54,740 nucleotides of DNA. Origin: Candidatus Onthocola stercorigallinarum (lineage in GTDB: Bacteria > Bacillota_I > Bacilli_A > RF39 > UBA660). Both the position numbers and the translations under genes were made by a program. Positions 3,087 through 53,832 of this stretch are shown here, in pieces. Position 1 is the first letter of the stretch, and the number at the start of each line of letters is the position of its first letter. The stretch spans positions 1 through 54,740 of the forward strand of contig DVMD01000095.1 of NCBI GenBank assembly GCA_018715145.1, given 5' to 3'. The notes beneath the pieces are model-generated. The model saw only the letters and a list, made by a program, of their open reading frames with translations, had not been told where the DNA came from and searched no databases.

Positions 3087-3671
3087 TCAATCAACTTTAT
3101 TTCTTATCCTTCTTTTAATATGTTCATCTAATTCTTCTCTTTGTTTGCTACATACAAATGATATAAATGCCGATATAACCGCTTCACTATCAACATACTC
3201 TCTATTATATAGACCATTAGTTAAATATCCCATTATTCCTAAATGTTGTTTATTATTACTATTACCTAAAATTTCTTCAATAACTTTATTTAAGGAACCA
3301 CCATTCTTTATATAATCAAACATTGTTTTAGACAGTCTAATTCCAAGAGACTTACCAGTTGATTTTTTACCAAGCTTATCTTCTGATACACAGTAGGTTA
3401 CTACAAAAGGGAGACCATTTTCATCAATAGAATACCCTCCCTCAATAGAACATAAGTAATCATAATCTATTTTATTTTCTAAAGCATATTCTTTTAAAGC
3501 TAAATTTCTATTTTCAGCTCCTCTTATTATTTCATAACCAATTGGTTTGCTACTTGTATTTGATGGTACATCTACAGAAATTATATTGTAATCTTGTATA
3601 CCTAATTTTGTTAAAGCCATATCAACTGCATTCTTTTTTGCGGGATTTTTACTTCCTAATAATATTTTCAT
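3087..3671 (-). CDS. Inosine/xanthosine triphosphatase (YjjX/DUF84 family non-canonical NTPase)
   Basis: MKILLGSKNPAKKNAV..., GAENR, SIEGG and MGYLTNGLYNR follow the YjjX pattern. The start is moved to the ATG at 3671, which has a GGAGG 5 nt upstream. The track start at 3683 lies within that RBS. Confidence 0.6.
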   Translation of the reverse strand: MKILLGSKNPAKKNAVDMALTKLGIQDYNIISVDVPSNTSSKPIGYEIIRGAENRNLALKEYALENKIDYDYLCSIEGGYSIDENGLPFVVTYCVSEDKLGKKSTGKSLGIRLSKTMFDYIKNGGSLNKVIEEILGNSNNKQHLGIMGYLTNGLYNREYVDSEAVISAFISFVCSKQREELDEHIKRRIRNKVD

Positions 3672-25491: not shown

Positions 25492-25865
25492 TACTCAACA
25501 ACTCTTATTTCTACTTCAAATTTATTGTTTTCGGTACTTTCTCCATTGGCAAGTCGCATTTTATCGTATAATGTACCAATAACAGTCGTTAGATTATTAA
25601 TCGGTATATCTTCTTTATCTAATTCTTTATCCAATTTACCTAAAGCCTTATAAATTAATCTATTGCAGTAATCTGAAAAAACTTCTTTTTTCTTTTCGTA
25701 CTCTTTCGGATTACTTTCAATTATTTTTTTTACTGTCTTATCAGAAATACCACATTGTTTAGCAGTAGCATTATAGCTATTAGTAAGTGCATAACTTGCA
25801 ATTACTTCCGCTTCCTTTTTACTATCTATTTTTACTCCGCTAGCCATACACTCACTTCCTCTCAT
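25491..25865 (-). CDS. terS: Terminase small subunit (HTH type)
   Basis: N-terminal HTH (SYNATAKQCGISDKTVKKII). It lies upstream of terL with overlapping stop and start codons. The start is either the ATG at 25865 (ATGA overlap with the upstream small ORF) or the ATG at 25847 (GAGGAAG RBS). Confidence 0.65.
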   Translation of the reverse strand: MRGSECMASGVKIDSKKEAEVIASYALTNSYNATAKQCGISDKTVKKIIESNPKEYEKKKEVFSDYCNRLIYKALGKLDKELDKEDIPINNLTTVIGTLYDKMRLANGESTENNKFEVEIRVVE

Positions 25866-26029
25866 TCATAATACTCATCAATGTCATCATCTATTTCGTC
25901 AAAATATTCATAATCGTCTTCGAACACAATACAACTCCATATTTCTTCTTTAAAAGCACTAGCTATACATATAATAATTGTGAATAACAATAAAGTTATC
26001 AACAATATTATTTCAACTATAATATTCAC
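25862..26029 (-). CDS. Small TM protein with an acidic tail
   Basis: Hand translation from a GTG that overlaps the upstream TGA (GTGA): VNIIVEIILLITLLLFTIIICIASAFKEEIWSCIVFEDDYEYFDEIDDDIDEYYE. It ends in an ATGA overlap with terS. Confidence 0.35.
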   Translation of the reverse strand: MNIIVEIILLITLLLFTIIICIASAFKEEIWSCIVFEDDYEYFDEIDDDIDEYYE

Positions 26030-26454: not shown

Positions 26455-26971
26455 TATATCTCCAAATATAACCACCACTGGATTTGATTTTTCCCTTGCA
26501 ACATTCAACTATATGTCGACTTTTGGTTTCTTTTGTTGCTGATCTTATTCCATCCCAAATTTTAATAATATTCATATTCATATCGTACTGAACAACTGAT
26601 TTTTTTAATCTGGTTTTAGATATTTTCAAATTATGATTACCATAATTGTTGTTGTATTTGTATGTACACCATTCCAAATTATTGACATTATTATTTGTTT
26701 TATCTTCATTCTTGTGATTAATACAAGAATAATTGTTTGGATTCTCAATAAAGGCTTGTGCAACTAGCCGATGAATATATTTAACATTTCTTTTCCTATC
26801 TTTCATCAAATACACTATATAATATCCATTACCATTATTACACGGCATTAATATTTTATTTCGCCTTATATATTTTCCACCAGCATACATTTGTAATGAT
26901 TTTACTCTACCATAATTACTAATTTGATATAAGCCTTCAAAACCTTTAATATCTTTCCAAATCTCTCTCAT
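26438..26971 (-). CDS. Free-standing homing endonuclease (NUMOD4 + HNH_3 type)
   Basis: IWKDIKGFEGLYQISNYGRVKS (NUMOD4 motif), HRLVAQAF and INHKNEDKTNNNVNNLEW (HNH). It is a paralogue of 32581-33105. Confidence 0.8.
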   Translation of the reverse strand: MREIWKDIKGFEGLYQISNYGRVKSLQMYAGGKYIRRNKILMPCNNGNGYYIVYLMKDRKRNVKYIHRLVAQAFIENPNNYSCINHKNEDKTNNNVNNLEWCTYKYNNNYGNHNLKISKTRLKKSVVQYDMNMNIIKIWDGIRSATKETKSRHIVECCKGKIKSSGGYIWRYNETNC

Positions 26972-26984
26972 TTATTTCTCCTAT

Positions 26985-27058
26985 TGGAGTATCCAGTAGG
27001 ATTCGAACCTACGGTTAAGGATTTGCAATCCTGTGCCTTTCCACTTGGCTATGGATAC
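26985..27058 (-). tRNA. trnC: Phage-encoded tRNA-Cys (anticodon GCA)
   Basis: The reverse complement reads GTATCCA-TA-GCC-AAGTGGAAA-GGC-A-CAGGA-TTGCAAA-TCCTT-AACC-GTAGG-TTCGAAT-CCTAC-TGGATAC-T-CCA. That is a full cloverleaf with the U73 discriminator typical of tRNA-Cys. Confidence 0.85.
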
Positions 27059-27061
27059 ATT

Positions 27062-27087
27062 AAAAAAAGAACTATTTCTAGTTCTCG
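27062..27087 (-). terminator. Intrinsic terminator ending the structured spacer transcript
   Basis: The minus-strand RNA reads AGAACUA-GAAA-UAGUUCU-UUUUUU. Confidence 0.5.
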
Positions 27088-27300
27088 TTTGGGGGTTATT
27101 CGTATCTTTAATAGATACTGTACTAATGATACCTACGGATTTGAACCGTAATCCCACAGGGGTCGCTGTGCCTCTATACCGTTTAGGGGACTGTTTACCA
27201 AAACAGTTGAAACTTTCAAGGAATTGAACCTATTAATATCACCAGTACACTATCCATTAAAGGATAGCAACAGTTATCGGTTTCCCGATACTAGGACATA
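27088..27300 (-). ncRNA. Candidate structured RNA with a tRNA-like T-arm/acceptor module (alternative reading: cos/packaging site)
   Basis: Elements seen on the minus strand: hairpins UAUCGG-GAAA-CCGAUA, CUAUCC-UUUAAU-GGAUAG, ACUGUUU-UGGU-AAACAGU and CACAG-CGACCC-CUGUG. There is a perfect T-arm, UACGG-UUCAAAU-CCGUA (27134-27150). An acceptor-like pairing joins UGAUAUU (27235-27241) to GGUAUCA (27127-27133). The segment is locally GC-rich in a very AT-rich genome. Confidence 0.3.
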
Positions 27301-27379
27301 TACTACTCTAGGCAGCTATGTATGTGGTTTTATGCATGGACTTATAATTATCCACAATACCATTGTACACCAAATTAAT

Positions 27380-27409
27380 AGGACATTGTGAGACATTATG
27401 AGACATTTC
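27380..27409. repeat. Three direct repeats (A/G)G(G/A)ACATT spaced exactly 10 bp apart
   Basis: AGGACATT at 27380, GAGACATT at 27390 and GAGACATT at 27400 (plus strand). They straddle the stop codon of the regulator gene at 27396-27815. Confidence 0.8.
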
Positions 27410-27815
27410 TGCGTTTTTCTTTATTATAAAGTCTATGACACTGTTTAATACTGTAATTAAATAATTTTGATATGTCATTCCACTTCCAACGAAGATTATC
27501 TCTGAAATATACAATGCAATATTCTACAGAGTTATTTCTCATCATCTCTCGGATTTCATTTATAGCCATTTCCTTATAATCTTTGTAAGTCTCCATAACT
27601 ACATCAAATTCGTTTTCTAAATTCTCTTTTTTTATAACCCTATTTAGCATTATATCTCCTTTCATACCACCTTTGGTTACTACATCTTTCCAGGTAACTG
27701 CTGATATATTTATTAGTGTTCTATTATATTTATGAGATAATTCTATCAATCTGGATCTTATTACTTTCATTTCGTCGAATATCTCTTTTATGGATAATTT
27801 CTTTTCTAGTATCAT
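27396..27815 (-). CDS. Late-gene transcriptional regulator candidate (ArpU/RinA-like, sigma region-4-like C-terminus)
   Basis: 139 aa. It is the last gene before the packaging module. The C-terminal HTH-like segment is WNDISKLFNYSIKQCHRLYNK. Confidence 0.4.
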   Translation of the reverse strand: MILEKKLSIKEIFDEMKVIRSRLIELSHKYNRTLINISAVTWKDVVTKGGMKGDIMLNRVIKKENLENEFDVVMETYKDYKEMAINEIREMMRNNSVEYCIVYFRDNLRWKWNDISKLFNYSIKQCHRLYNKEKRRNVS

Positions 27816-38510: not shown

Positions 38511-38582
38511 AAAAGTTCATCTCCTTATTTAAATTTTATGTTTCATTTTGTCGAAACTTGTGGTTGATTGTTTTTTTTCTTA

Positions 38583-38682
38583 TTCAGATGCTTAAGTGAG
38601 AGCTAAATGTGATAATTGAAAAAATTATTAACAGTTATACTTTTTTTTAGAAAGGAGTTTAGCTCTCGCGTAAGCATCTGAA
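38583..38682. repeat. Long imperfect inverted repeat (25-nt arms, ~50-nt spacer)
   Basis: TTCAGATGCTTAAGTGAGAGCTAAA (38583-38607) pairs with TTTAGCTCTCGCGTAAGCATCTGAA (38658-38682). There is one mismatch and one G:T pair in 25 positions. Confidence 0.85.
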
Positions 38683-38730
38683 TTTGAATACCGACAAATT
38701 GCGCGACTTTTGGCGGTGTTTTAGTTATGC

Positions 38731-41169: not shown

Positions 41170-42552
41170 ATGAATAAAGAAATATATGTGGCAATTTATA
41201 TAAGAGTATCAACTACACATCAAGTTGAGGAAGGTTTTTCTCTTGATGCTCAAGAAAATAAATTAAGACAAATATGTGAATTAAATGGATACAAGATATA
41301 TAAAATATATGCTGACAAAGGAATAAGCGGTAAGGACACTATTCATAGACCAGCATTCCAACAAATGATGGAAGATATGGAGACAGGATTATTTTCTAAA
41401 ATACTAGTCATGAAATTAGATAGAATATCTAGGTCAGTTGCAGATTTAGAAAATATTATTAAGCAATTACAAAAGCATAACTGCGGATTTGAAAGCGCTT
41501 CTGAAAAAATTGATACAACTTCTTCAATGGGATTAATGTTTATACGACTGTTGGGTGTATTTGCTCAATTCGAAAGAGAAAGAATTGCCGAAAGAATTAG
41601 AGATGCATTTGATGAAAAAATCAAACAAGGTGGTGCAGTAACCAGATCATTACCTATGGGATATAAAATTGGAACAGATGATAAAGGCAAGAAAATCGTA
41701 ATCAAAGACATTGAGAAAGAAGAAATAGTTAAAGATATGTTTGATACTTATGAACGGACTAATTCGTTACAAAAAACCGCGGATTATTTAAATGAAAAGT
41801 ATCCTGATAAATTAAATAAATATATGGCTACCGGACAAGGAATAAGTAGAGCATTAGATAGCAAAATGTATTATGGATATTATCGTGGTAACGACAGTTA
41901 CTGCGAACCGTATGTCAGTAAAGAAAGATGGGAACGATTAAACGAAATTAAAAAATCTAAAAATATTAAAGGTTATAAACACACATTCATTTTTAGTGGT
42001 ATACTAAAATCATCTTGTGGACATTATTTAGTAGGTCATTTCTGCCACGGAGAAAATGCTTATCGATGTAAAATTTATTCAACTAACAAAAAATGTTCAT
42101 GCAACTCTGTGCGTGAAAAATATGTTGAAAAGCAGTTCCTAGATAAACTTAACGATTCATTAATAGAATATATTGATAAATACACTATCAAGATATCAAA
42201 TTCTAAATATATTGATAATACCAAAAAAATTAAATCTTTAGAAGAAAAAAAGCAAAAAATAATTAGTTCATTTATTAACGGGTGGATTAATGAAGATGCC
42301 GCAAAATCAGAAATTAATCAAATAGAAGTTTCTATAAAAGAACTTAAAAAAGACAATAAAATAGAAGATATAGAGGCATTAAAAAAGATTATAAATTCAA
42401 ATTGGAGAGAAAAATATAATCACTTTACAAAAGAAGAAAAACAAGCTTTTATAAGAAACTTAAATATAGACTATATCTATATAGATCATGAAAAATATAA
42501 TCAAGGATGGAGGGATAGAAAACCAGAATTTTTAACTATTTATTTCAAATAG
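41170..42552 (+). CDS. Large serine recombinase (phage integrase)
   Basis: 460 aa. It has a resolvase-type N-terminus with the catalytic Ser context AIYIRVSTTHQ and LDRISRS, a recombinase domain, a Cys-rich zinc-ribbon region (SCGHYLVGHFCHGENAYRCKIYSTNKKCSC) and a C-terminal coiled coil. It ends 28 nt before the att core. Confidence 0.95.
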   Translation: MNKEIYVAIYIRVSTTHQVEEGFSLDAQENKLRQICELNGYKIYKIYADKGISGKDTIHRPAFQQMMEDMETGLFSKILVMKLDRISRSVADLENIIKQLQKHNCGFESASEKIDTTSSMGLMFIRLLGVFAQFERERIAERIRDAFDEKIKQGGAVTRSLPMGYKIGTDDKGKKIVIKDIEKEEIVKDMFDTYERTNSLQKTADYLNEKYPDKLNKYMATGQGISRALDSKMYYGYYRGNDSYCEPYVSKERWERLNEIKKSKNIKGYKHTFIFSGILKSSCGHYLVGHFCHGENAYRCKIYSTNKKCSCNSVREKYVEKQFLDKLNDSLIEYIDKYTIKISNSKYIDNTKKIKSLEEKKQKIISSFINGWINEDAAKSEINQIEVSIKELKKDNKIEDIEALKKIINSNWREKYNHFTKEEKQAFIRNLNIDYIYIDHEKYNQGWRDRKPEFLTIYFK

Positions 42553-42560
42553 TTTATTAG

Positions 42561-42586
42561 CATATTAAATATGCTTTACCAGAAGG
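42561..42586. other. attR of the prophage (phage-side half-site CATATTAAATATG at 42561-42573 plus core CAGAAGG at 42580-42586)
   Basis: See attL. Phage DNA lies on the left, and host cwlJ coding sequence resumes at 42587. Confidence 0.8.
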
Positions 42587-42935
42587 CGATCTTGGAATGC
42601 TTATGGTTGGTAATGTTGTTGTAAATAGAGTTTTGGCAGATTGTCTAACTTTTAAAAATATTGATAGTGTCTATGATGCCATTTATCAACCAAATCAATT
42701 TGTAGGAACTAATTCTTCATTATTTAATGCATCTCCAACAACTACAGAAAGAAGGCTAGCTGAACGAATTTTAAGAGGAGAATATTATTATCCTGCAACA
42801 AATGCTTTATGGTTTTATGCCCCATCTGGTAACAGTAGTTGCAAAACAACATGGTATGATCAAGTTCTCGCAGGTAGATATAAAAGTCATTGTTTTTATA
42901 ATCCCGATCCAGGAGTATGTCAAAAAATACATTAA
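42587..42935 (+). pseudogene. cwlJ: 3' fragment of the cwlJ/sleB-type spore cortex-lytic hydrolase gene
   Basis: The in-frame sequence (G)DLGMLMVGNVVVNRVLADCLTFKNIDSVYDAIYQPNQFVGT...ALWFYAP...YYNPDPG follows the Hydrolase_2 catalytic-domain pattern (VG.VV.NRV ... IYQP.QF). It has no RBS or start codon of its own at the junction. Confidence 0.8.
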
Positions 42936-42987
42936 ACTTTTAATTTTTAAATATTTGGGGTATAATAATACAGAAAGGATTATTAAT

Positions 42988-43569
42988 ATGCTAAATATTT
43001 ATATTTTATTATTTTTTATATATTCTTTTGTTGGTTGGATATTAGAAGAAATATATGCTTTTTATATTCACAAAAAATTTATCAATAGAGGATTTTTAAT
43101 GGGCCCATTATGTCCTTTATATGGAGTAGGTTGTCTTGCTTTAACTTTTGTTTTGCATAGATTTAGTAATAATATACTTTTATTATTTATTTTATCTATG
43201 CTTATTTGTTCTGTAATTGAATATTTAATTAGTTATTTACTTGAAAAATTATTTAGTTTAAGATGGTGGGATTATTCTAATATGAAATTTAATATTAATG
43301 GCCGAATATGTTTAGAAACAACTATTCTTTTTGGCATTATTGGTATTTTAGTTGTTAAATTTATTAATCCCTTTTTAATTAATATACTTACAAATATAAA
43401 TATAAAAACAGTAAATATAATAACTTTAATATTAGTTATTATATTTACTGCTGATCTAATAATATCTTCTTATTTAACTTTAAACATTAAAGATAAAAAT
43501 CCTAAAGTTGATGCAACAGAATATATTAAAAAGTATATTCATGAAAATATAAAGAATATATTTTCATGA
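42988..43569 (+). CDS. Polytopic membrane protein (putative ABC-transporter type IV / CmpB-like family)
   Basis: The start is moved to the ATG at 42988, because the track start at 42802 overlaps the cwlJ fragment. FFIYSFVGWILEEIY ... GFLMGPLCPLYGVG ... RWWDYS is characteristic of this family. Confidence 0.55.
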   Translation: MLNIYILLFFIYSFVGWILEEIYAFYIHKKFINRGFLMGPLCPLYGVGCLALTFVLHRFSNNILLLFILSMLICSVIEYLISYLLEKLFSLRWWDYSNMKFNINGRICLETTILFGIIGILVVKFINPFLINILTNINIKTVNIITLILVIIFTADLIISSYLTLNIKDKNPKVDATEYIKKYIHENIKNIFS

Positions 43570-43674
43570 AATATTTTTTTAGATCTATTTATCACAATGT
43601 TTAGTTATTTCATATATTTTTATCTTTTTTATAACACAGAGATTTCAGTACAATTATCTGCAGAATTTAAACGC

Positions 43675-43698
43675 AAAAAACTATAGCCTAAGCTATAG
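43675..43698 (-). terminator. Intrinsic terminator downstream of the VirD4-like gene
   Basis: The minus-strand RNA reads CUAUAGC-UUAG-GCUAUAG-UUUUUU. Confidence 0.6.
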
Positions 43699-43700
43699 CA

Positions 43701-45023
43701 TTATTCACTATATATTTTTGTTTCATGGGTCTTTCTTAGAGGTAAATTAACTTTATTATATTCACCCCAATTATATTTATAATCTGGATATAATTTAGTT
43801 CTAATTGGATATTCTCTAGGCATTAATATTAATGCTTCAAAATGATTTAATACTTTTAATTCTTCAACTGTAATTAATGGTTGTATTTTTTTATCAGCTA
43901 AAGTATTACCACAAATTTTAGATATTTCTGTTAAAGTATCATAATCATTAGAAAGTAAATAAATTGTATTTGTAAAACACATTCTAAGTATTTCTGAATT
44001 TTCTTTACCATAAGTATTTTCTAGATCTTTAAAACTTCTGATAATAGCAGTAATACATACCTTATTTCTTCTAATGTTATTTATCAATTTAGAAAAATCT
44101 TTAATAGGAAGTAAATTATCAAAATCATCTAATAAAATATTTAATCTCTTTTTATTATTATCTTCAATTGAATCAATTATTTGATTAATAAATAGAGGAA
44201 TTATATCATTATAGTTTGATGTATTACCACTTAAAATAAAGATTGCTGTTTTTTCTTTTTGAATATCTCTTAAATCAAAATCACTATAATTTAACATATT
44301 AGCTAAATTAACTCTAGTTATATATTTATGCATTCTTAAATTAAATGTAGCAATTATTCCCCCTTTTGTTTCTGCTGGGGCTTTTAAAATAGCTGATAAA
44401 TAATAACTAATAGTTGCTTTGTCTTTTATTTTATCAATAAACTTATCATCTATTTTATTAGCTAAATTATAAATGCTTTCTAAGTTTATTTCATCAGATT
44501 TAGCATTTTCAAATAAATACAAAGCTAAACCAACAAAATAATCTATTGCAGAATTATTCCAAAAACTACTAGCTTCATCACTATCACTAAACAAGTAGTA
44601 TGCGATATTTTCAAGTTCTGTAATAACTTCATCCAAATTATTATTCTTATATAAACTATATGGTAATGTTAAAGGATTCCAATTATTACCATATTTTGCT
44701 TCTTTAAAATCAATAGCAATAACTTTATAACCATTATCATCTAGCATACCACTTAAAGCATTATAAGCTTCCCCACTAATATCATGAATTACAAATGATT
44801 CTCCAGCTTTAATAGAAAGTCTAGCCATTGGTAATATAACCGTTTGACTTTTACCAGAGCCAGTTGAACCAATTACTAAATTATGGCCATCATGCGTATT
44901 AATATAAAAATTATTATTATCATATATCATAGGAAAACCTGATTCATCTAACACCTCCGTTCCATCATAGTTAACTAATTTTTCTTTGAACTTATTATTA
45001 TTTGTCCAATGTGCATATTGCAT
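43701..45023 (-). CDS. VirD4/TraG-family type IV coupling-protein-like ATPase lacking the N-terminal TM region (orphan)
   Basis: 440 aa with Walker A (VIGSTGSGKSQTVILP) and Walker B-like (LNILLDDFDNL) motifs. It has no N-terminal hydrophobic segment and no neighbouring T4SS genes. Confidence 0.65.
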   Translation of the reverse strand: MQYAHWTNNNKFKEKLVNYDGTEVLDESGFPMIYDNNNFYINTHDGHNLVIGSTGSGKSQTVILPMARLSIKAGESFVIHDISGEAYNALSGMLDDNGYKVIAIDFKEAKYGNNWNPLTLPYSLYKNNNLDEVITELENIAYYLFSDSDEASSFWNNSAIDYFVGLALYLFENAKSDEINLESIYNLANKIDDKFIDKIKDKATISYYLSAILKAPAETKGGIIATFNLRMHKYITRVNLANMLNYSDFDLRDIQKEKTAIFILSGNTSNYNDIIPLFINQIIDSIEDNNKKRLNILLDDFDNLLPIKDFSKLINNIRRNKVCITAIIRSFKDLENTYGKENSEILRMCFTNTIYLLSNDYDTLTEISKICGNTLADKKIQPLITVEELKVLNHFEALILMPREYPIRTKLYPDYKYNWGEYNKVNLPLRKTHETKIYSE

Positions 45024-45105
45024 TTTTTCTCACCTCGCATATATTAAATCACATATTTTATATTATCTTTTAAACAATAGTGGCTTTTTATGATATAATG
45101 TACTT

Positions 45106-45561
45106 ATGAAAGAAGTAATATATAAAATATTAAAATTTATAGATTCTAATATTAATCAAAAAATAGATATAGATCATTTATCTAAACATTTTTATATTAA
45201 TAGATATTATTTAATGAAACTATTTAAAAGAGAAATGGGTTTAACTATTAATAACTATATTAATAGTCTAAGAATATATAATAGTCTAAAAGATATTAAA
45301 GATAAAAGCATTTTAAATGTTGCTTTAAAAAACGGATTTTATTCTCAAGAATATTATTCTGAGACATTTAAAAAGATTATGGGTGTTAAACCAATTACTT
45401 ATAAAAAGTATATTAATTATGATAGATCTGTATCCTATAAAGAAATAGATATAATATTAAATAGTTTAATTAATTTAAAAGATATAGTAAATAAAAAAGA
45501 AAATTATTTACATAACTTTCTTTCTCAAGATCATGAACAAGTATTATCTATATTTAGATAA
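45106..45561 (+). CDS. AraC-family HTH transcriptional regulator (DNA-binding domain only)
   Basis: IDHLSKHFYINRYYLMKLFKREMGLTINNYINSLRI ... VALKNGFYSQEYYSETFKKIMGVKPITYKK gives two HTH units. Confidence 0.75.
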   Translation: MKEVIYKILKFIDSNINQKIDIDHLSKHFYINRYYLMKLFKREMGLTINNYINSLRIYNSLKDIKDKSILNVALKNGFYSQEYYSETFKKIMGVKPITYKKYINYDRSVSYKEIDIILNSLINLKDIVNKKENYLHNFLSQDHEQVLSIFR

Positions 45562-45562
45562 A

Positions 45563-46912
45563 TTAAGGCAATAATAATTTTTGACCTATTGATAATGTAG
45601 TTGTTGATAGATTATTTAATTTAGTAATTGCTGATACGGTGGTACCAAATTCTTCTGCTATACCATATAAGGTATCTCCTGATTTTACGGTATAAACTAC
45701 ATTATCACTACTGCTACTTGGTATTTTTAGAGTCTGACCAATACTTAAAGTATTACTCGTTAAATTATTTAACGATTTTAAAGCATCAACTGTAGTATTA
45801 TATTTATTAGCTATTGCATATAATGTATCTCCTGCTTTTACAGTATAAGTATTAGTACTTGTACTATTACTACCTGGTAATTTTAAAACTTGACCTATTG
45901 ATAATGTATTACTTGTTAAATTATTTAGTGATTTTAATGTATCAACTGTTGTGTTATATTTATTAGCTATTCCATAAAGGGTATCTCCTGATTTTACAGT
46001 ATAGGTATTAGTACTAGCTGTAGTACTTGGTAATTTTAAAACTTGACCAATAGACAAGGAATCAGTGGTTAAATTGTTGATAGATTTCAAGTTATCAACA
46101 GTTGTATTAAATTTATTGGCTATACCATATAATGTATCACCTTTTTGAACTATATATTCATCAGTAGTAGTCTCAGATTCTTTAGTTGGAATAAGTAAAT
46201 TTTGACCAATACTTAGTAAATTACTTGTTAAATTATTAGCTTGTTTTAATTCATCCACTGTAATACCGTACTTTTTAGAAATACTCCATAGGGAATCTCC
46301 ACTTTTAACTGTATAGTAATTAGAACCAGTCGGAGCAATATAAGTACCACCAGCATATTCCACAATTGCTTTAGTTACCGCTTCAGCGAGGTCTTCCCAA
46401 TTATTTTTAATTTGAGAAACATCATCTCCAGTAGAATCTGCAAAGCCATATTCAACAATTACTGTTTCGTTATTGGGGGTATCACGCATTATGTAATAAT
46501 AATCTTTCGCGGGATTGCTAGGCAATCTTCTTTGATAATACTTTCTCACATTTTGGCCAGCGGTTTCTAACTCTTTAGCTATTTTAGCTGAAAATGTATC
46601 ATCATTGCGAAGGGCATAAATAACCTCAGCACCATCACCACCCCCAGCATTAATGTGATTAGATACAACTATTACATCTTCGCCATTACCATAAAAACTT
46701 TGAATACGCCCAGGCCTTGAATTACTATCAAGTGTTTCATCACTAGTCCTAGACATTTCATTAGGCATTCCTAACTCATCTAATCTGTTATGAATATAAT
46801 CACTAATTTTTAAAGTATATTCTTTTTCAGTTATTCCATTTGCAATAGTCCCAGGATCATCCCCACCATGTCCAGCATCAATTACCACCTTTTTTAAAGC
46901 TCTATTATCCAT
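45563..46912 (-). CDS. N-acetylmuramoyl-L-alanine amidase (Amidase_3) with five LysM repeats
   Basis: The N-terminus KVVIDAGHGGDDPG is followed by 5 copies of YTVKSGDTLYGIANKYNTTVD.LKSLNNLTS..LSIGQ.LK.P. The start is moved to the ATG at 46912 (AGGTGA RBS). Confidence 0.85.
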   Translation of the reverse strand: MDNRALKKVVIDAGHGGDDPGTIANGITEKEYTLKISDYIHNRLDELGMPNEMSRTSDETLDSNSRPGRIQSFYGNGEDVIVVSNHINAGGGDGAEVIYALRNDDTFSAKIAKELETAGQNVRKYYQRRLPSNPAKDYYYIMRDTPNNETVIVEYGFADSTGDDVSQIKNNWEDLAEAVTKAIVEYAGGTYIAPTGSNYYTVKSGDSLWSISKKYGITVDELKQANNLTSNLLSIGQNLLIPTKESETTTDEYIVQKGDTLYGIANKFNTTVDNLKSINNLTTDSLSIGQVLKLPSTTASTNTYTVKSGDTLYGIANKYNTTVDTLKSLNNLTSNTLSIGQVLKLPGSNSTSTNTYTVKAGDTLYAIANKYNTTVDALKSLNNLTSNTLSIGQTLKIPSSSSDNVVYTVKSGDTLYGIAEEFGTTVSAITKLNNLSTTTLSIGQKLLLP

Positions 46913-47021
46913 GTATATCACCTAGAATATTATATGAATATTTTAAATATTGGTTATATCGTGGTTTAATTACAATTCAAAAACATCTAACAATAATCAT
47001 CAATAAAAAAGTTTTACTAAA

Positions 47022-47501
47022 TCAAACTTCTATTGGTTTATAATCTATTACTTCTACTGAAACACATTTATGTAACTCTTTACTAAATCCCTCATCTTCT
47101 AATGGTTTATTATGAATATGTCCATGAACATTAATAAAACCAACAGGTATATCTCTATCAGGAATAGGCCGATGAGATAAAATTATCTTTTTATCTTCAA
47201 TTAAAGTTCTAGTTGGAATAACTTCCAAGCCATGAGTATTGTAATAATTAATAGATTTACCATCATGATTACCACGAATTAAATATATTTTGCCATTCAA
47301 TTTACTAACTAAATTAGTAATATCACTATTTTTAAAAGCAAAATCTCCAAGATGATAAACTATATCATTTTCGTTTACTACACTGTTCCAATACTTTATT
47401 AATTCTTCATTCATTTCTTCTACATTACTAAAGGGACGATTACAATACTTTATAATATTGGTATGACCAAAATGAGTATCAGCAATAAAATATGTTTTCA
47501 T
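47022..47501 (-). CDS. Calcineurin-like metallophosphoesterase
   Basis: Motifs IADTHFGH, HLGDF, RGNHDG and VHGHIH are present in canonical order. Confidence 0.8.
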   Translation of the reverse strand: MKTYFIADTHFGHTNIIKYCNRPFSNVEEMNEELIKYWNSVVNENDIVYHLGDFAFKNSDITNLVSKLNGKIYLIRGNHDGKSINYYNTHGLEVIPTRTLIEDKKIILSHRPIPDRDIPVGFINVHGHIHNKPLEDEGFSKELHKCVSVEVIDYKPIEV

Positions 47502-47560
47502 TATTCCTCCAGTTTACTATCACCCATAGCATAATCAATAGTAATCCCAGGGCGTACATT
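47501..47560 (-). pseudogene. Relic of the 3' end of a nuclease gene paralogous to 50095-50826
   Basis: 47499-47560 matches 50093-50154 at 52 of 62 nt. It encodes NVRPGITIDYAMGDSKLEE*, compared with NVQPGIIIDYETGDSKLEE* in the intact gene. Both share the same TAATG junction with the downstream gene. The frame is closed upstream of 47560. Confidence 0.7.
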
Positions 47561-47589
47561 TTTTAATTAAAAAACTATATTTAAAAAAC

Positions 47590-49434
47590 TTATATTTTTC
47601 TTACAGAATCATACACAATTGCTATTTTTTCAAACACACTATCCGTTTCATCAATTAATATTTTTTTTACTTTGTCTATATTTTTAATAAAGTTAAATAA
47701 CGAATATGTATTTTTTTCTGAATCTCTATACACATCTATATAATCAATATAAAAAGAAATGGTGTCATTTACAATATCATACAAAAAACCAGTTGTTGTT
47801 TCCATTTGTAAATTTTTATTTCCATGAAATTGCTTATTTCTTAGATAATAAGCATCCATTAATAATTCTTTTGCCTCTTTATGAAACATTTGAAAATACA
47901 CCTCATATTGAAGTACCATATTCTTTACTCGACAATATTTCCATGTCAAGAAATCACAATTATCAGGATTTCTCCCATCAAAATTCAAAAAAATATTCTC
48001 TACGAAATTATTACTCAATTTATTAAAACCTTTATACATTTTCTTAATTTGTACCGCTGTTAAATATATATATCCCGATAACATTCTATCCGCCACCAAA
48101 TAACTAGCATAATCTTCAAAAGACTTAGAAATATTATCTCCAGCATTTCTAAACAAAGTCTCCAAAGCAAACCATGTATTTGTAAATTTAGTTAATGTCG
48201 ATTCAGAATTTTTGTAGTATGGCAATAATTGTACAGCTTCATCTATAATTCTATTTATATCACTATCACTATTGTCTATAACATATCTTTTAAACACATC
48301 AGAATAATCAATTCTATCTTGCGTTAATGGTTTAAAAACATCATCATAAAAATTATAATAATTTATAAAATTTTTGTGTTCTTTGTTCTCTATTAAAAGA
48401 TAATCGCCTATAGTATTTACTTTTATTCCAGAATAAAGCATTGAACCAATAAATGGCTGAAGTACTTTCTGCTTAAATTTGCGAATTGCTTGCCAAATGT
48501 CTTTACTATATATTTCAGATGATAAATAATAATTATTATCTCTTTTAATTTTAATATCACTAATTATTTCTGATAAGTGTTTTTTATTATTAATCATAGA
48601 TTCTTCCAAAAATTTAATCAATCCGGACTTGCTATATATAATATAATTATTATTCCCAGATTGTTTTAATACACTTAATAATTTTTCATCAAATTCTTTA
48701 TCCATTTTTATAAAAATTATATATTTATTTTCAGAATCATATTGCTCTGCAAATTTAATAAACATATCACTAAAAGAAGAAAATGATTTCTTTTCAAAAA
48801 AATTTCTATATGCATCACGCACAATTTTTTTTATTTCAAAAATACTTATCCCTATATAATCTATAAGTAATGCGAAATACTCATTAGATAATTCAGCTAT
48901 TTCATCAAAATTATCATAATTAAATTCTTCACTTACTACTAAATCAAACAAACTATCTGATATATTGTCAAAATATTTATTATCAATTAAACTTATATAA
49001 ATCAATTTCAAGTTTTCTATTAAGTTTAAGTCATCATTTTCATTAATAAACTGAATATATCTTTTTTTGTGATCAGCTTTTATAAATTTATTGTTTTTTA
49101 TTGCATCTCTTATATAATCAATTTTATGCTTAGGAATTTTAGCTATTTTTTCTTTAGCCTCAAATTGCTTGTTTATATCTTCATAATAGCTTATTATTTT
49201 CTTTATTTTTCCTAACAGTGAATTATTTAAATTTCTACTTCCAAGCATAGAAATACTACTTAAATTTTCTATAATATAATTTAAAAAAAACATCATATTT
49301 CTATTTTTTAAGCCAATTCTATTAAAATCATCATTACTAACAATATTTTTGCTTGAAAAAAGTAGCTGTTTAATAAACTTTTCTTCGTCATCTAAAACCC
49401 TACTATATAATAATAATTTTTCTGTTACCTTCAT
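47590..49434 (-). CDS. Large orphan protein with a C-terminal HEPN-like Rx4H motif (candidate defence/abortive-infection nuclease)
   Basis: 614 aa, extremely AT-rich. WFALETLF ... YYLRNKQFHG places the R-N-K-Q-F-H motif at nt 47824-47841. No other recognisable domains were found. Confidence 0.4.
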   Translation of the reverse strand: MKVTEKLLLYSRVLDDEEKFIKQLLFSSKNIVSNDDFNRIGLKNRNMMFFLNYIIENLSSISMLGSRNLNNSLLGKIKKIISYYEDINKQFEAKEKIAKIPKHKIDYIRDAIKNNKFIKADHKKRYIQFINENDDLNLIENLKLIYISLIDNKYFDNISDSLFDLVVSEEFNYDNFDEIAELSNEYFALLIDYIGISIFEIKKIVRDAYRNFFEKKSFSSFSDMFIKFAEQYDSENKYIIFIKMDKEFDEKLLSVLKQSGNNNYIIYSKSGLIKFLEESMINNKKHLSEIISDIKIKRDNNYYLSSEIYSKDIWQAIRKFKQKVLQPFIGSMLYSGIKVNTIGDYLLIENKEHKNFINYYNFYDDVFKPLTQDRIDYSDVFKRYVIDNSDSDINRIIDEAVQLLPYYKNSESTLTKFTNTWFALETLFRNAGDNISKSFEDYASYLVADRMLSGYIYLTAVQIKKMYKGFNKLSNNFVENIFLNFDGRNPDNCDFLTWKYCRVKNMVLQYEVYFQMFHKEAKELLMDAYYLRNKQFHGNKNLQMETTTGFLYDIVNDTISFYIDYIDVYRDSEKNTYSLFNFIKNIDKVKKILIDETDSVFEKIAIVYDSVRKI

Positions 49435-49615
49435 ACTACCATCCTTAAATATAAAATAATATTATTTAATACTATTATACCATAAAAAAATTATTATTAC
49501 ATATTTTTATTAATGTTTAAGAATAACTAGAAACATTATTTCTAGCATTAGTGAATAACTAATTTCTAAAGTTCCCTCATCTATCTAATTCACCTACAAT
49601 ATCATTTTATCATAT

Positions 49616-50095
49616 TTATTCATTTGCAATATATTTCAAATAAATATTTCTTACTCCTCTTTTAAATTCCTTATTCCTTTTTAACTCAAATCCATCTAAC
49701 AATAAATTTTTGATTGAATACTTATTATCTGGATGCACAGTGCATATTGCATATTTATATCCTAACTTCAATGAATATTCATCAAGTTCTTTAAGCATTT
49801 GATATTGTAATTGATTTCCAATATATTTCGGATTTACAAACATAGGGCCATAATCAGCTACATCTCTATATTTTATTTTTATACTCAAATCAAAACTATT
49901 TAAAGCATTTTCATCACATGGTATTAACATCATTGAGCAAACTGGCTCATCAGCATCATAATAAATCCAATCTTCTTTTGAAAAATCTCCTAGCCAATCA
50001 GGATGTTCCATATTATCTTTTACTTGTTTTCTAAATTCAATATATTCATCTAAATTTATATTATCACTATTACATTTTAATTCATTTAATCTCAT
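49616..50095 (-). CDS. GNAT-family acetyltransferase (tentative)
   Basis: 159 aa. Its size and beta-alpha pattern fit, and there is an acetyl-CoA-site-like segment (FVNPKYIGNQLQYQMLKEL). Its start overlaps the nuclease stop (TAATG). Confidence 0.4.
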   Translation of the reverse strand: MRLNELKCNSDNINLDEYIEFRKQVKDNMEHPDWLGDFSKEDWIYYDADEPVCSMMLIPCDENALNSFDLSIKIKYRDVADYGPMFVNPKYIGNQLQYQMLKELDEYSLKLGYKYAICTVHPDNKYSIKNLLLDGFELKRNKEFKRGVRNIYLKYIANE

Positions 50096-50826
50096 TATTC
50101 CTCCAATTTACTATCTCCAGTTTCATAATCAATAATAATTCCAGGTTGTACATTATAAACAAATACATTAAATGATATTCCTTCACCATTATCTTCAATA
50201 GAATATGCTTCCATTTCAACACCAGTTGCAACTAAGTTATCCCCTTCAAAGTATGGAGTAACTTTATATAACACATGATTGCCGGTTTCCTCAATATATG
50301 CCGCAACTTCATTTTCAAATTGAAGCATAGTTGTTGCATTCATATATCTTGTACAAGTAATTAAATTTTCCGCATTAGCATTTTCTCCAGTTAATTGATA
50401 ACCTATTAAATGACAACGATTATATAAGTATTTTCCACTCACAATATCATATCTAACCGTATGCCAACCACTAGGTTCTATACTACCAATACTGCCTCTT
50501 TCTTCTGTGGGCATAGTATCCTTACTAACACTTGCAAAAGCTACACCACATCTACCTAAATTATCTAAAGGACTATAATATTCAAATGATTCTAATGCTT
50601 TTTCTTCATCAGAAAAATTTGGAACATTATCATTTATATAAACATAAGCTTCTCCACTATATTCAGAAATGTTTTCTAAATTAGTATAATTTTCTTTAAC
50701 TTCATTTTCTTCTATTAATGTAACATATTCTTCATGAACATAATAAATAAAATATCCCAGCAAAAAACAAAAGACAACACCTAATAATTTATTTAAATTT
50801 TTCTTTCTTTTTCTTCTTCTAGCCAT
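50095..50826 (-). CDS. Membrane-anchored DNA/RNA non-specific endonuclease (DNA-entry nuclease / EndA-NucA type)
   Basis: It has an N-terminal anchor (LLGVVFCFLLGYFIYYV). PLDNLGRCGVAFA ... WHTVRYD ... YNRCHLIGYQLTGENANAENL matches the family pattern. Confidence 0.7.
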   Translation of the reverse strand: MARRRKRKKNLNKLLGVVFCFLLGYFIYYVHEEYVTLIEENEVKENYTNLENISEYSGEAYVYINDNVPNFSDEEKALESFEYYSPLDNLGRCGVAFASVSKDTMPTEERGSIGSIEPSGWHTVRYDIVSGKYLYNRCHLIGYQLTGENANAENLITCTRYMNATTMLQFENEVAAYIEETGNHVLYKVTPYFEGDNLVATGVEMEAYSIEDNGEGISFNVFVYNVQPGIIIDYETGDSKLEE

Positions 50827-50910
50827 AATACTACCCCTTTCATTATATCAAATTTGACTAAAATAAACAATTATGTTAAAATATTATTCAATCTGAAAGG
50901 GGGAAAACTT

Positions 50911-51561
50911 ATGTCTCAAGATTTGTATAAAGGCCAATGTGGTTCTTGCAAAAATTATCAAATCAATGATTTGAGAGGAGCAGAAAGAGACGGATACGGT
51001 TGTAGCTATCAAGGAAGAGTATTTGGATCCCCATATTATAAAAGATTCCCATTTGATTACTCCTGCGGAGGCTACAAAAAAGATTCATATCGTACCGATA
51101 AAGATATTCAAAAAGCTTATGAAGCTCTTGACCGTAGATATGGATATCGTCCTGGCAAATCCACATGGTATTACATTGCAACATTTGTTACCGAAACACT
51201 AGGAACTGAAGCATGTGAAAATTATTTCACAACTATTGCCCAATTTCGTGAACAAGTATTAGAAAAAAAGATCATAAAATATGCATCATTCTTAGTAGAA
51301 TATGATATGTATGGTAGATTAATTGCTAATTCTTTATACCAAGATGAGCAAAAAGAATTAATAGCTAAAGAATTATTATTTAATTATATAATTCCAACTT
51401 GTTTATTAATTAATCAAAAAAAATATGATGAAGCATTAAATATATACATAGAAATGTTTGAAAAACTAAAAGAAATGTATAATATAACTACAATTAAAGA
51501 TTATGATTTTGCAAATACTTCAAGTTTAGATGAAGACCAAATTAGTAAATTAACAAGATAA
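50911..51561 (+). CDS. Hypothetical protein with a Cys-rich N-terminus
   Basis: The start is moved to the ATG at 50911 (GAAAGGGGGA RBS). The N-terminus contains CGSC...GC...SCGG. The remainder is helical. Confidence 0.35.
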   Translation: MSQDLYKGQCGSCKNYQINDLRGAERDGYGCSYQGRVFGSPYYKRFPFDYSCGGYKKDSYRTDKDIQKAYEALDRRYGYRPGKSTWYYIATFVTETLGTEACENYFTTIAQFREQVLEKKIIKYASFLVEYDMYGRLIANSLYQDEQKELIAKELLFNYIIPTCLLINQKKYDEALNIYIEMFEKLKEMYNITTIKDYDFANTSSLDEDQISKLTR

Positions 51562-51573
51562 AAGAAGGCCAAA

Positions 51574-52047
51574 TTAGTCTTCTTTTAGTTTGCCAACATC
51601 TATCCATTCTTTAAAATTTGAATATTCTCCTAATTCTGGAATAGTTAGTTTAATTGCACTACTTGCACTCCCACAAGCGGGATATACATATTCAAATCTC
51701 TTTAAAGATTCATCTAAATAAACAGTAATTCCTTCATTTATAGCAAAAGGACAAACTCCTCCAGCGGCATGACCAATAACACACTCTAACTCATCAGCTT
51801 GAATCATTTTTGCTTTACAACCAAATTTTTGCTTATATTTTGGATTATCAACTTTAGTATCTCCCGCCAAAACTATAAGTATGGGCTTATCATCTACCCA
51901 AAAAGACATTGTTTTAGCAATATGAGCCTCATCGCATCCTATTGCTAATGCCGCATCATGAACAGTTGCACTGGATTCATTAAATTCAAGTACATCTTCC
52001 TCACGACCAAATTTTTTAAAATATTCTTTTACTTTATCAATTGCCAT
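51574..52047 (-). CDS. YbaK/EbsC-type aminoacyl-tRNA deacylase (editing domain protein)
   Basis: HIAKTMSFWVDDKPILIVLAGDTKVD..K ... IGHAAGGVCPF is the YbaK-family pattern. The start is moved to MAIDKV at 52047. Confidence 0.7.
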   Translation of the reverse strand: MAIDKVKEYFKKFGREEDVLEFNESSATVHDAALAIGCDEAHIAKTMSFWVDDKPILIVLAGDTKVDNPKYKQKFGCKAKMIQADELECVIGHAAGGVCPFAINEGITVYLDESLKRFEYVYPACGSASSAIKLTIPELGEYSNFKEWIDVGKLKED

Positions 52048-52642
52048 TATTAACCACATCCTTAACTTCTGTTTTACATATTAAATCATGAATTCCTAAA
52101 TGCTTTTTACTAAATATCACAATTCCACCATTAATATAAAAGAAAATACCTACTATAAATGTTAAAGCCATATCAACATATAAATATACATTTGCATCAA
52201 ATATCCACAAAGCAAGTAAACTTAATACTTCAAATATAATATTATATATAATCAAAGTCCTAAGTAACATTTGCCAAATACTTACTTTTTTATTTTTACT
52301 TGTAACACTAATATTGAAAGCTTTTTTACCCAATGTTTGATTATGATTCCATTTTTGAAATCCGACAAAATATAATAAATAGATAACTATTGTACTAATA
52401 GATACTGACACACTATATTTATCTAAATTATAATAAATATTTTTAAATTCAGCACTATTAACAGCATCAAAATTGCCATCCACGACTTCATCATACATTA
52501 CAGCATAATCATTATAAGCACTTACATATTCATCATAACTAGGATTTAAAAATCTAATTTGACTAACCATAGTAGTAAGTAAAATTATAAAAATATAATC
52601 AAGAGCATACGCACAAATTCTTCTAAATGTTAAACTATCCAT
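52037..52642 (-). CDS. RDD-family membrane protein
   Basis: The N-terminal RRICAYALDYIFI motif is followed by several TM helices. Confidence 0.6.
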   Translation of the reverse strand: MDSLTFRRICAYALDYIFIILLTTMVSQIRFLNPSYDEYVSAYNDYAVMYDEVVDGNFDAVNSAEFKNIYYNLDKYSVSVSISTIVIYLLYFVGFQKWNHNQTLGKKAFNISVTSKNKKVSIWQMLLRTLIIYNIIFEVLSLLALWIFDANVYLYVDMALTFIVGIFFYINGGIVIFSKKHLGIHDLICKTEVKDVVNNGN

Positions 52643-52691
52643 AAATCACCACATAAATATTGTACACTCATTCCAAGAAAAAAGCAAACTT

Positions 52692-53831: not shown

Positions 53832-53832
53832 T

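Follow-up and report, generated by a model that had tools for sequence, protein, structure and literature searches.

A conserved three-helix RNA clamp around an exchangeable insert upstream of the terminase genes in a prophage of Candidatus Onthocola stercorigallinarum

What does a phage keep in the non-coding DNA that lies before its terminase genes? The question is raised by contig DVMD01000095.1 of assembly GCA_018715145.1 from Candidatus Onthocola stercorigallinarum, which was analysed over its full 54,740 nucleotides, referred to here as the window. In a prophage on this contig, a gap of 337 bp separates a gene for a 139-aa protein from a tRNA-Cys gene. A sequence-only reading had proposed that the gap holds either a structured RNA with a tRNA-mimic module or the cos site for DNA packaging. 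The gap is indeed non-coding and bounded by these two genes. The proposal of a structured RNA was right in kind, but the conserved part is a clamp of three helices, namely a left flanking hairpin (LH), a long-range helix (P1) and a right flanking hairpin (RH), and the tRNA-like T-arm belongs to a hypervariable insert at the apex of P1, which is called the payload below.

The individual features reported earlier are all present on the minus strand at the positions given for them. They include a GNRA-capped hairpin, UAUCGG-GAAA-CCGAUA (27290–27275), the hairpins CUAUCC/GGAUAG (27266–27250, which is the conserved LH), ACUGUUU/AAACAGU (27207–27190) and CACAG/CUGUG (27170–27155), the T-arm UACGG-UUCAAAU-CCGUA, and a hairpin with a U-run where an intrinsic terminator had been claimed. 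The gap is also enriched in GC (36.8% against 28.9% in the AT-rich window, the 97.5th percentile among windows of 337 nt). These features do not form one unit, as had been supposed: frame and insert are separate. The minus-strand fold of the gap is more stable than that of shuffled sequences (z −3.9), and for 27275–27100 (z −4.67) this is due to a 28-bp helix (27262–27235 with 27133–27106) that contains one G.G mismatch and five G.U pairs and that had been overlooked. It extends a 7-bp pairing (27241–27235 with 27133–27127) that had been compared with a tRNA acceptor stem; the pairing exists, with two U.G pairs, but it is the inner end of the longer helix and not an acceptor. For the 101-nt interior, where the small hairpins and the T-arm lie, no stability beyond that of shuffled sequences was found (z +0.43). 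The fold signal of the gap comes from the 28-bp helix.

Relatives were sought by exact-pattern scans of IMG/VR, in which a 24-nt right-arm pattern was found in 39 stretches, an 18-nt left-arm pattern in 11, and a 15-nt left-arm pattern gave more than 120 matches, chance ones among them. When left and right arms were required to pair, 97 non-redundant elements at 91 viral loci (numbered with the prefix L) were obtained. An LH of at least 5 bp is found in 82 of 92 elements with 41 distinct stems, and RH in 59 of 92 with 30 distinct stems; four of the five RH pairs show compensatory changes (e.g., U-A 22 times against C-G 14 times). In P1, 99.5% of the cells are paired and the variants are solely U.G, G.U or compensatory. 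L184 shows a compensatory change from G-C to A-U in the inner part of the helix. The core of P1 contains 125 G.U cells against 3 A.C cells. This excess speaks for a coding-strand RNA; the folding of that strand as DNA is a less likely cause.

Conservation models were scored on a MAFFT alignment of 46 distinct arm sets. The three-hairpin model (LH, P1 and RH) left 96.4% of the cells paired, with six pairs changed on both sides, including four of the five RH pairs. A model with one long helix, into which the distal arms can zip instead over 28 bp, left 95.0% paired, with nine pairs changed on both sides. None of 500 shuffles matched either model, and slid controls gave 16–62% and 25–59% pairing, respectively. 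Judged by these alignments, both foldings are conserved. The outer end of P1 shows a near-universal G.G opposition because each G pairs within its own flanking hairpin; three loci (L036, L037, L070) have C-G there instead, and their flanks are without LH or RH. In two diverged loci with a matching genomic position (L003 and L007), the LH-P1-RH layout is kept with different P1 sequences (z −6.2 and −4.7). A second type of element was noticed in L082 (about 75–180), with the same LH/RH layout and the P1 core GCAUCUAAUAUA / UAUAUUAGAUGG; it stands in tandem with the canonical element, about 30–90 nt upstream of it. Right arms like those of this second type also occur upstream in L006, L024, L115, L151 and L169.

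The inserts between the arms range from 26 to 294 nt. In 99 elements, 60 unrelated classes were distinguished, some of them structured RNAs and one a small ORF; the payload of the window is a singleton. Among 23 IMG/VR contigs with a related terL, the closest is L001 (terL 98%). In L001, the block after the stop codon of the 139-aa gene, both arms and the terminator align almost perfectly with the window, while the interior is an unrelated 79-nt sequence, about 70 nt of the 5' leader are missing and the adjoining tRNA is Ile instead of Cys. Ten further contigs were found in ENA/Logan through an identical 139-aa protein, that is, independently of the arms. These contigs are about 100% identical outside the arms, yet three payloads occur among them: that of the window is invariant in 9 of 11 sequences (the window and eight of the ten contigs), L184 has a 106-nt insert and L186 a 123-nt insert. 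Such a pattern indicates that the payload, together with the innermost pairs of the arms, is exchanged as a unit between otherwise identical phages. The T-arm is part of this unit, since the payload is replaced in L184 and L186.

Payloads also look functional. One class of 161 nt shows 12 pairs with compensatory changes on both sides, and the GC content of the payload exceeds that of its flanks in 62 of 89 cases (p = 5e-6). The payloads of L042, L056 and L085 (285–294 nt) contain an 81/83-aa ORF with a ribosome-binding site, whose versions are 39% identical (E 6e-21). Because these payloads are a small protein gene, the arms can frame a coding cassette as well as an RNA. The 178-nt payload of L139 has CUGAUGAG, a short hairpin and then CGAAAC, which is reminiscent of a hammerhead core, with no Rfam match at the gathering threshold. 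Antisense targeting was considered and rejected: the three payloads of the identical-regulator contigs show no complementarity to the window beyond chance 13–15-mers.

The element is always oriented in the same direction as the neighbouring genes, and its genomic position is restricted. It lies upstream of terS/terL or downstream of a gene of the 139-aa family in 57 of the 97 cases, usually about 1 kb from terS, and between the genes for a minor capsid protein (Phage_min_cap2) and for scaffold/P22-type coat proteins in 11; the remainder are on truncated loci. Of 50 tRNAs in these loci, 18 are within 400 nt of the element on the same strand. In L012 (terL 91%), the equivalent region is a non-coding stretch of 1.5 kb with a ROOL RNA, three tRNAs and then an arm-bracketed element. 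The ROOL RNA (L012:2516–3121; RF03087, 163 bits) is accompanied by an adjoining tRNA of 84 nt (3272–3355; Rfam 42.5 bits) that is not called by ARAGORN. Apart from tRNAs and this ROOL RNA, Rfam 15 gave no family match, either at the gathering thresholds for the window and 28 loci or at E ≤ 10 for the spacer. No description was found in the literature by keyword or by full-text search with the arm sequences, although the element could be among the more than 10,000 candidate phage RNAs catalogued in PMC10690425. The element is of the phage leader or small-RNA kind, and for its conserved frame around a swappable, hypervariable RNA core no described counterpart was found. The coordinates are collected in Table 1.

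Table 1. Features of the gap and its borders, in window positions
Feature	Positions	Strand	Remarks
139-aa gene	27396–27815	minus	coiled-coil and C-terminal helix-turn-helix (HTH); remotely RinA/sigma-70-region-4-like; candidate late activator
AATGTC direct repeats (three)	27407–27402, 27397–27392, 27387–27382	minus	10-nt period; overlap the stop codon of the 139-aa gene
Gap	27059–27395	minus	337 bp; bounded by the 139-aa gene and tRNA-Cys; non-coding
Extended −10, TGTG-GATAAT	27347–27356	minus	no −35; putative late promoter
Two 5' leader hairpins	27321–27296 and 27293–27271	minus	lineage-specific; second one GNRA-capped; fold z −1.98
LH, UGCUAUCC-UUUAAU-GGAUAGUG	27269–27248	minus	left flanking hairpin; 97% of cells paired
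P1 left strand, GUGUACUGGUGAUAUU	27250–27235	minus	core almost invariant across the 97 elements; innermost 7 nt form the 5' "acceptor"
Payload	27234–27134	minus	101 nt; 43.6% GC; at the P1 apex; T-arm (27150–27134) stacks on P1
P1 right strand, GGUAUCAUUAGUACAG	27133–27118	minus	contained in the 24-nt right-arm pattern; innermost 7 nt form the 3' "acceptor"
RH, GUAUCU-AUUAA-AGAUAC	27118–27102	minus	right flanking hairpin; missed by the sequence-only reading
Terminator-like hairpin, GAGAACUA-GAAA-UAGUUCUU and U7	27086–27062	minus	8 bp; dG −8 kcal/mol; z −4.66
tRNA-Cys(GCA)	26985–27058	minus	ARAGORN; Rfam 65 bits; genuine, outside the element

The surroundings of the clamp resemble a late leader, in the order of regulator, promoter, short RNA, terminator and late genes. 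In this order, which is read from the sequence, the regulator may be an activator or an antiterminator. Members of the 139-aa family give weak matches to HTH_23 (4 of 16 members, best 7.5e-5), Sigma70_r4, sigma70-ECF and phage_rinA, and nothing usable was obtained for the protein of the window from single-sequence Pfam (E ≤ 10), PDB or profile-against-PDB searches. The family is present in 26 of the 91 loci, and a member lies within 1.5 kb upstream of 25 of the 97 elements. The weak matches of the 139-aa family fit the late activators of Gram-positive phages, which are encoded just upstream of terS. The three AATGTC repeats, which may be binding sites of the activator, are kept in L001. Diverged relatives have analogous repeats of another sequence upstream of the element; in five of them (L038, L012, L085, L032, L029), a repeat pair or triplet of their own precedes an extended −10. 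Depending on the family member, the repeated sequence is AATGTC, TGTCAGT, GATAACGTT or AAATGCAC, and the regulator and its repeat appear to co-vary.

A promoter block TGG(A/C)ATAAT is common to the window, L001, L091, L085 and L032. The extended −10 of the window was not called by a sigma-70 scan, which requires a −35; an activator-dependent late promoter with a start near 27341 is proposed. The 5' leader hairpins are missing from L001, and L186 retains the GNRA stem through a change from G-C to G.U. At the other end of the leader, the terminator-like hairpin is weak yet clearly non-random. It was skipped by a consensus terminator scan with a minimum of three G-C pairs, and it is kept in L001 and in all ten identical-regulator contigs, with or without a tRNA. 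Across the family, 37 of 89 elements are followed by a hairpin of this kind within 150 nt downstream, and 13 of 89 are preceded by one. On this view, the non-coding DNA before HNH-terS-terL would be a late promoter with its leader and not necessarily a cos site.

The account that we favour, with somewhat more confidence than doubt, is that this late promoter drives a leader of about 280 nt whose clamp presents an exchangeable payload ahead of a terminator. It builds on what the data show directly: how the element is laid out, that it belongs to a family, that its conservation is of the RNA type, where it lies in the genome and that its payloads are swapped. The HTH regulator encoded upstream would bind the three AATGTC repeats and activate the extended −10 promoter despite the missing −35. 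The leader would begin with the two lineage-specific hairpins and then fold into the three helices LH, P1 and RH, with the payload borne at the tip of P1; in the window, the 3' end of the payload is the T-arm stacked on P1. The terminator would end most transcripts as a discrete small RNA, as at lambda PR'-tR', and read-through would supply the tRNA-Cys, HNH, terminase and head genes. The clamp itself may serve as a scaffold or processing stalk with a stem of RNase III length, which brackets the payload, protects its ends and releases or presents the payload RNA. The role of a processing stalk is preferred because a helix of at least 28 bp that brackets the payload resembles RNase III stalks; the 28-bp helix has 95% of its cells paired across the family. 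The payload would be an accessory phage RNA with fast turnover, and payloads would pass between phages by homologous recombination in the conserved arms. The phage encodes a Sak annealing protein.

Several points weigh against this account. Promoter use, termination, RNase III processing and payload function are all things that we infer. Most of the loci were retrieved with exact arm patterns, so that the arms seem more invariant than they are; this bias is mitigated by the near-invariance of the arm that was not queried, by the set of contigs fetched through the protein and by the existence of diverged P1 variants. A single metagenome project (3300045988) supplied many of the loci, which are mutually related, so that the shuffle controls overstate their independence. 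The canonical P1 is strongly conserved in sequence, though a helix for RNase III needs no fixed sequence, and this hints at a sequence-specific partner that the account does not name. Only about 40% of the elements are followed by a terminator. The two conserved alternative pairings suggest a switch, which a pure scaffold does not explain. Finally, the payload of the window shows zero variation and an unremarkable fold, so its structure, including the tRNA-like stack, lacks comparative support.

Some of these points are better explained by the chief rival, which we consider unlikely, though less so than the other rivals. It states that the clamp acts in cis in antitermination or attenuation, in the manner of HK022 put or of nut sites, with the RNA acting on RNA polymerase directly or via a factor. 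The alternation between LH plus RH and the long helix would then be a switch for terminator read-through, and the payload a tolerated apical insertion. The element lies directly between the proposed late promoter and the terminator, with the late genes and a promoterless tRNA-Cys beyond, and elsewhere it precedes the highly expressed scaffold and coat genes; sequence conservation in the canonical P1 would fit binding to a conserved host machine, and the conservation of both foldings would fit a switch. However, a recognisable terminator lies within 150 nt of only about 40% of the elements, the P1 sequence differs in diverged relatives, and the upstream regulator resembles an activator (RinA/sigma-like) and not an antiterminator of the Q or N type. 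The rival thus accounts for the conserved sequence and the two foldings better than the processing stalk does, but it leaves the structured, GC-enriched and often swapped payloads unexplained. The tRNA-like character of the payload offers another route. According to a reading that is rather improbable, the payload stacked on P1 mimics a tRNA acceptor and T-arm and would either engage tRNA-directed enzymes or defences, being their decoy or substrate, or mark the RNA for processing. The T-arm is canonical, its UUCAAAU loop being closed by a G-C pair, and it adjoins P1 directly through two U.G pairs; the chance expectation for a T-loop hairpin is about 0.002 per 337 nt and about 0.4 per whole window (an estimate from base composition). 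T-loop hairpins are mildly enriched in the family (four in 3 of 91 payloads against 0.21 expected, and none in antisense), the payload of the variant element in L082 contains GCAAG-UUCGAUU-CUUGC, elements cluster near tRNA genes, and the GC content of the payload resembles that of the adjoining tRNA. Yet the helix runs well past 7 bp, so that a free acceptor end and CCA are missing, as are the D and anticodon arms, and the payload is absent from L184 and L186 despite the identical regulator and near-identical flanks. The covariation check proposed earlier supported the clamp but not this part, as no homologue of the window payload shows variation. The T-loop with the adjoining arm sequence had no match in IMG/VR or in JGI metagenome contigs, and a gapped pattern of T-loop and arm gave four chance matches inside coding sequence.

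The claim that the spacer holds no normal tRNA was borne out. Default ARAGORN finds only tRNA-Cys and a tRNA-Trp in the window and nothing in the spacer, and a cmscan against Rfam at E ≤ 10 over 26800–27600 gave no tRNA, tmRNA or Y-RNA signal there. The relaxed ARAGORN search suggested with the earlier claim produced only mutually contradictory calls, with "introns" of 54–150 nt or a "permuted tmRNA" (tag VAIL*, ps80), which are threshold artefacts. These results also bear on the idea, which we hold to be very improbable, that the T-arm and the "acceptor" are remains of a decayed tRNA gene from a phage tRNA cluster. Related leaders hold one to three tRNAs, including the odd 84-nt tRNA missed by ARAGORN, and the T-arm core GGTTCAAATCC recurs in the phage tRNA-Ile of L001. 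Against this, the spacer scores nothing as a remnant cloverleaf, the "acceptor" is P1, a helix that is found throughout the family and also surrounds payloads with no tRNA features, and an intact tRNA lies between the arms in none of the 99 elements with classed payloads. At the level of DNA, the element might be a MITE-like transposon, an inverton or an attC-like folded single-strand recombination site that captures cassettes, which is only marginally less improbable than tRNA decay. Conserved inverted arms do surround variable cargo, including an ORF, the cargo differs among the identical-regulator contigs with breakpoints within the arms, some loci have tandem or "empty" copies, and the G.U bias would equally fit one folded DNA strand. 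The orientation relative to transcription is fixed, however, with one or two copies per phage in two genomic contexts only, which led to the rejection of a MITE or other small transposon. An inverton was rejected because no payload was found in both orientations among 174 high-scoring segment pairs: 168 had the same orientation and the 6 opposite ones are attributed to a mis-called orientation of L043 and an internal palindrome. No linked transposase or integron integrase was seen, the recombinases being the prophage serine integrase and Sak, and species-representative genomes gave only three matches, all in contigs of uncultured bacteria or metagenome-assembled genomes. The least probable of all is that the spacer or its inverted repeat is the cos/pac recognition site for packaging by HNH-terS-terL. 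The premise of that proposal holds, as the spacer is the nearest non-coding DNA upstream of HNH-terS-terL, the intervening 55-aa ORF is a real gene, and the element is usually about 1 kb upstream of terS. Seven contigs end 55–271 nt downstream of the element (L060, L065, L040, L137, L059, L170, L086), and two others start 114–269 nt upstream; such ends exceed the roughly one expected by chance (an estimate) and could stem from genome ends close to terS or from assemblies that broke at the variable cassette. They lie outside the element, at differing sequences. Moreover, the interior spans 26–294 nt, has no relationship from phage to phage and sometimes includes an ORF, 11 elements lie between minor-capsid and scaffold genes, far from the terminase, and the excess of G.U over A.C and the covarying hairpins speak for RNA. 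The cos proposal thus found no positive support for the element, and a cos site may lie elsewhere in or near the spacer. The gap between HNH and terS was rejected as the "real" cos in this lineage, where the 55-aa ORF is conserved with an in-frame indel.

Known RNA classes were also compared and rejected. A tmRNA gave no Rfam match at E ≤ 10, and the third position of the acceptor-like helix is A-U and not G3:U70. A bacterial Y RNA (YrlA) gave no Rfam match, and no TROVE domain was found among the 27 window ORFs scanned; ROOL and GOLLD had no Rfam match in the window. A hammerhead was dismissed as CUGAUGA in P1 is fully paired with UCAUUAG, no GAAA follows and Rfam gave no match. A mimic of CRISPR repeats or tracrRNA was set aside on the grounds that the arms are seen solely as inverted pairs and never in direct arrays.

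Beyond the processing stalk preferred above, a wider reading is put forward as a tentative possibility. The clamp may be the fixed docking or processing frame of a modular RNA-cassette system, in which gut phages keep one or two frames ahead of their late units and trade, via the arms, inserts of at least 60 types, with tRNA-like and otherwise structured RNAs and micro-ORFs among them. The inserts would be fast-evolving RNAs for counter-defence or host takeover, and the two-state folding would reflect recognition by a host or phage factor. By analogy, such a system would be the RNA-gene counterpart of integron cassettes or anti-defence hotspots.

All genes around the gap are on the minus strand, and upstream of it YopX is followed by two small genes, the second being the 139-aa gene. 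After tRNA-Cys come a homing-type endonuclease (NUMOD4-HNH, 26971–26438), a second HNH gene, the 55-aa ORF (25862–26029, minus strand), a terS-like gene and terL. The product of the 55-aa ORF has a hydrophobic N-terminus and an acidic tail, and an indel of 3 nt that keeps the frame in relatives, where the ORF is conserved, marks it as a real gene. In L184, an additional tRNA lies between this ORF and terS. The tRNA-Cys and NUMOD4-HNH genes are present together in the window, L183 and L184 and are both missing from the eight other identical-regulator contigs; about 20 nt upstream of the terminator stem (about 27101–27084) vary together with their presence. This looks like the insertion of a homing endonuclease that carries a tRNA, with a co-conversion tract. 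The prophage gene set also includes a serine integrase, the Sak single-strand annealing protein, SSB, a methylase, a P22-type portal protein and other head genes. In a cultured-phage database, a megablast with 24 kb found no match, and a blastn with the spacer region matched only the tRNA and the start of the HNH gene.

Two further regions of the window deserve mention. At 38568–38697, an inverted repeat of 40 nt, with 80% complementarity and 50 nt between its halves, coincides with a switch in GC skew and gene direction, in what is probably the lysogeny and early-control region. The prophage abuts a conjugative or defence region with conjugation and Abi genes: from 41170 to 54666, the serine integrase (41170–42552) is followed by a coupling protein of a type IV secretion system, a LysM amidase, a non-specific endonuclease, an HtrA-like protease and Abi_2. 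The hosts of these phages are probably uncultured gut Bacilli or "Tenericutes", judging from the three matches in species-representative genomes.

If the proposed account is true, the element would constitute an unannotated phage RNA family with about 100 instances in IMG/VR alone and an unusual architecture: near-identical phages swap the hypervariable RNA core, while the frame around it is conserved. Accessory non-coding RNAs that homology searches miss in uncultured gut phages would become accessible through it, and it would mark a new kind of diversity hotspot. It could also provide a natural RNA scaffold for the expression of arbitrary small RNAs. For annotation, the case illustrates that a T-arm beside a helix is not sufficient for calling a tRNA mimic.

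The element shares leaders with tRNAs and with a ROOL RNA, whose function in phages is a standing question. ROOL (Rfam RF03087) and GOLLD are large phage-associated non-coding RNAs of unknown function that lie beside tRNA genes (PMC5737381, PMC12286853). Like them, the element occurs in phages and prophages of Bacillota-type hosts and beside tRNAs, and ROOL itself lies in the equivalent leader of L012. These RNAs are large and conserved throughout, whereas here a small frame surrounds a hypervariable core and neither sequence nor structure matches. A comparison can also be made with tRNA-like domains such as that of tmRNA (TLD) and that of the bacterial Y RNA YrlA. In these RNAs, as here, an acceptor-like helix is stacked on a T-arm, the anticodon arm is lacking and a long closing stem is formed from 5' and 3' parts. 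The spacer differs in having no Rfam match, free 3' end or CCA, G3:U70 pair or model-supported tag ORF, and no Ro60/TROVE protein among the scanned ORFs; moreover, its tRNA-like part is not conserved in the family.

Repeat-bounded cassettes provide a different type of parallel. Integron attC cassettes, the PeSL "mobile regulatory cassettes" of T4-type phages and REP/REPIN elements also carry variable cargo between short conserved sequences at which recombination can take hold, and their cargo turns over in near-identical genomes. The arms described here are inverted and form one RNA helix, the cargo is mostly a non-coding RNA of 26–294 nt, and there is no linked dedicated integrase or RAYT; one or two copies per genome lie at fixed positions. 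The put sites of HK022 and the EAR RNA, which act in cis, are similar in that adjacent stem-loops lie shortly after a promoter, putative in the present case, and ahead of terminators. A put site has two hairpins and no variable insert, and we know of no sequence similarity between the put or EAR RNAs and the clamp.

The late leader of lambda is similar in layout. It consists of the Q gene, PR', the 194-nt 6S RNA and tR', and in Stx phages the corresponding leader gives the small RNA StxS. As is proposed for the present locus, a regulator is encoded directly upstream of a late promoter, and a short structured leader ends at an intrinsic terminator before the late genes; tRNA genes can share the leader, and the terminated leader RNA can serve as a small RNA. 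The regulator of the present locus resembles a RinA/sigma-type activator and not Q, and a conserved clamp around a swappable insert is absent from the lambda leader. The clamp itself can be compared with RNase III stalks, such as the rRNA-operon stems around 16S and 23S and the intergenic sites of T7 and SP82. These stalks, which lie at the borders of genes in strongly transcribed operons with co-transcribed tRNAs, likewise pair over a long range (at least 20 bp) around an RNA, which is set free or stabilised, and the sites of SP82 and T7 are also conserved in sequence within phages. In the family described here, by contrast, the bracketed RNA differs in almost every phage, and the stem carries two covarying flanking hairpins that can re-pair.

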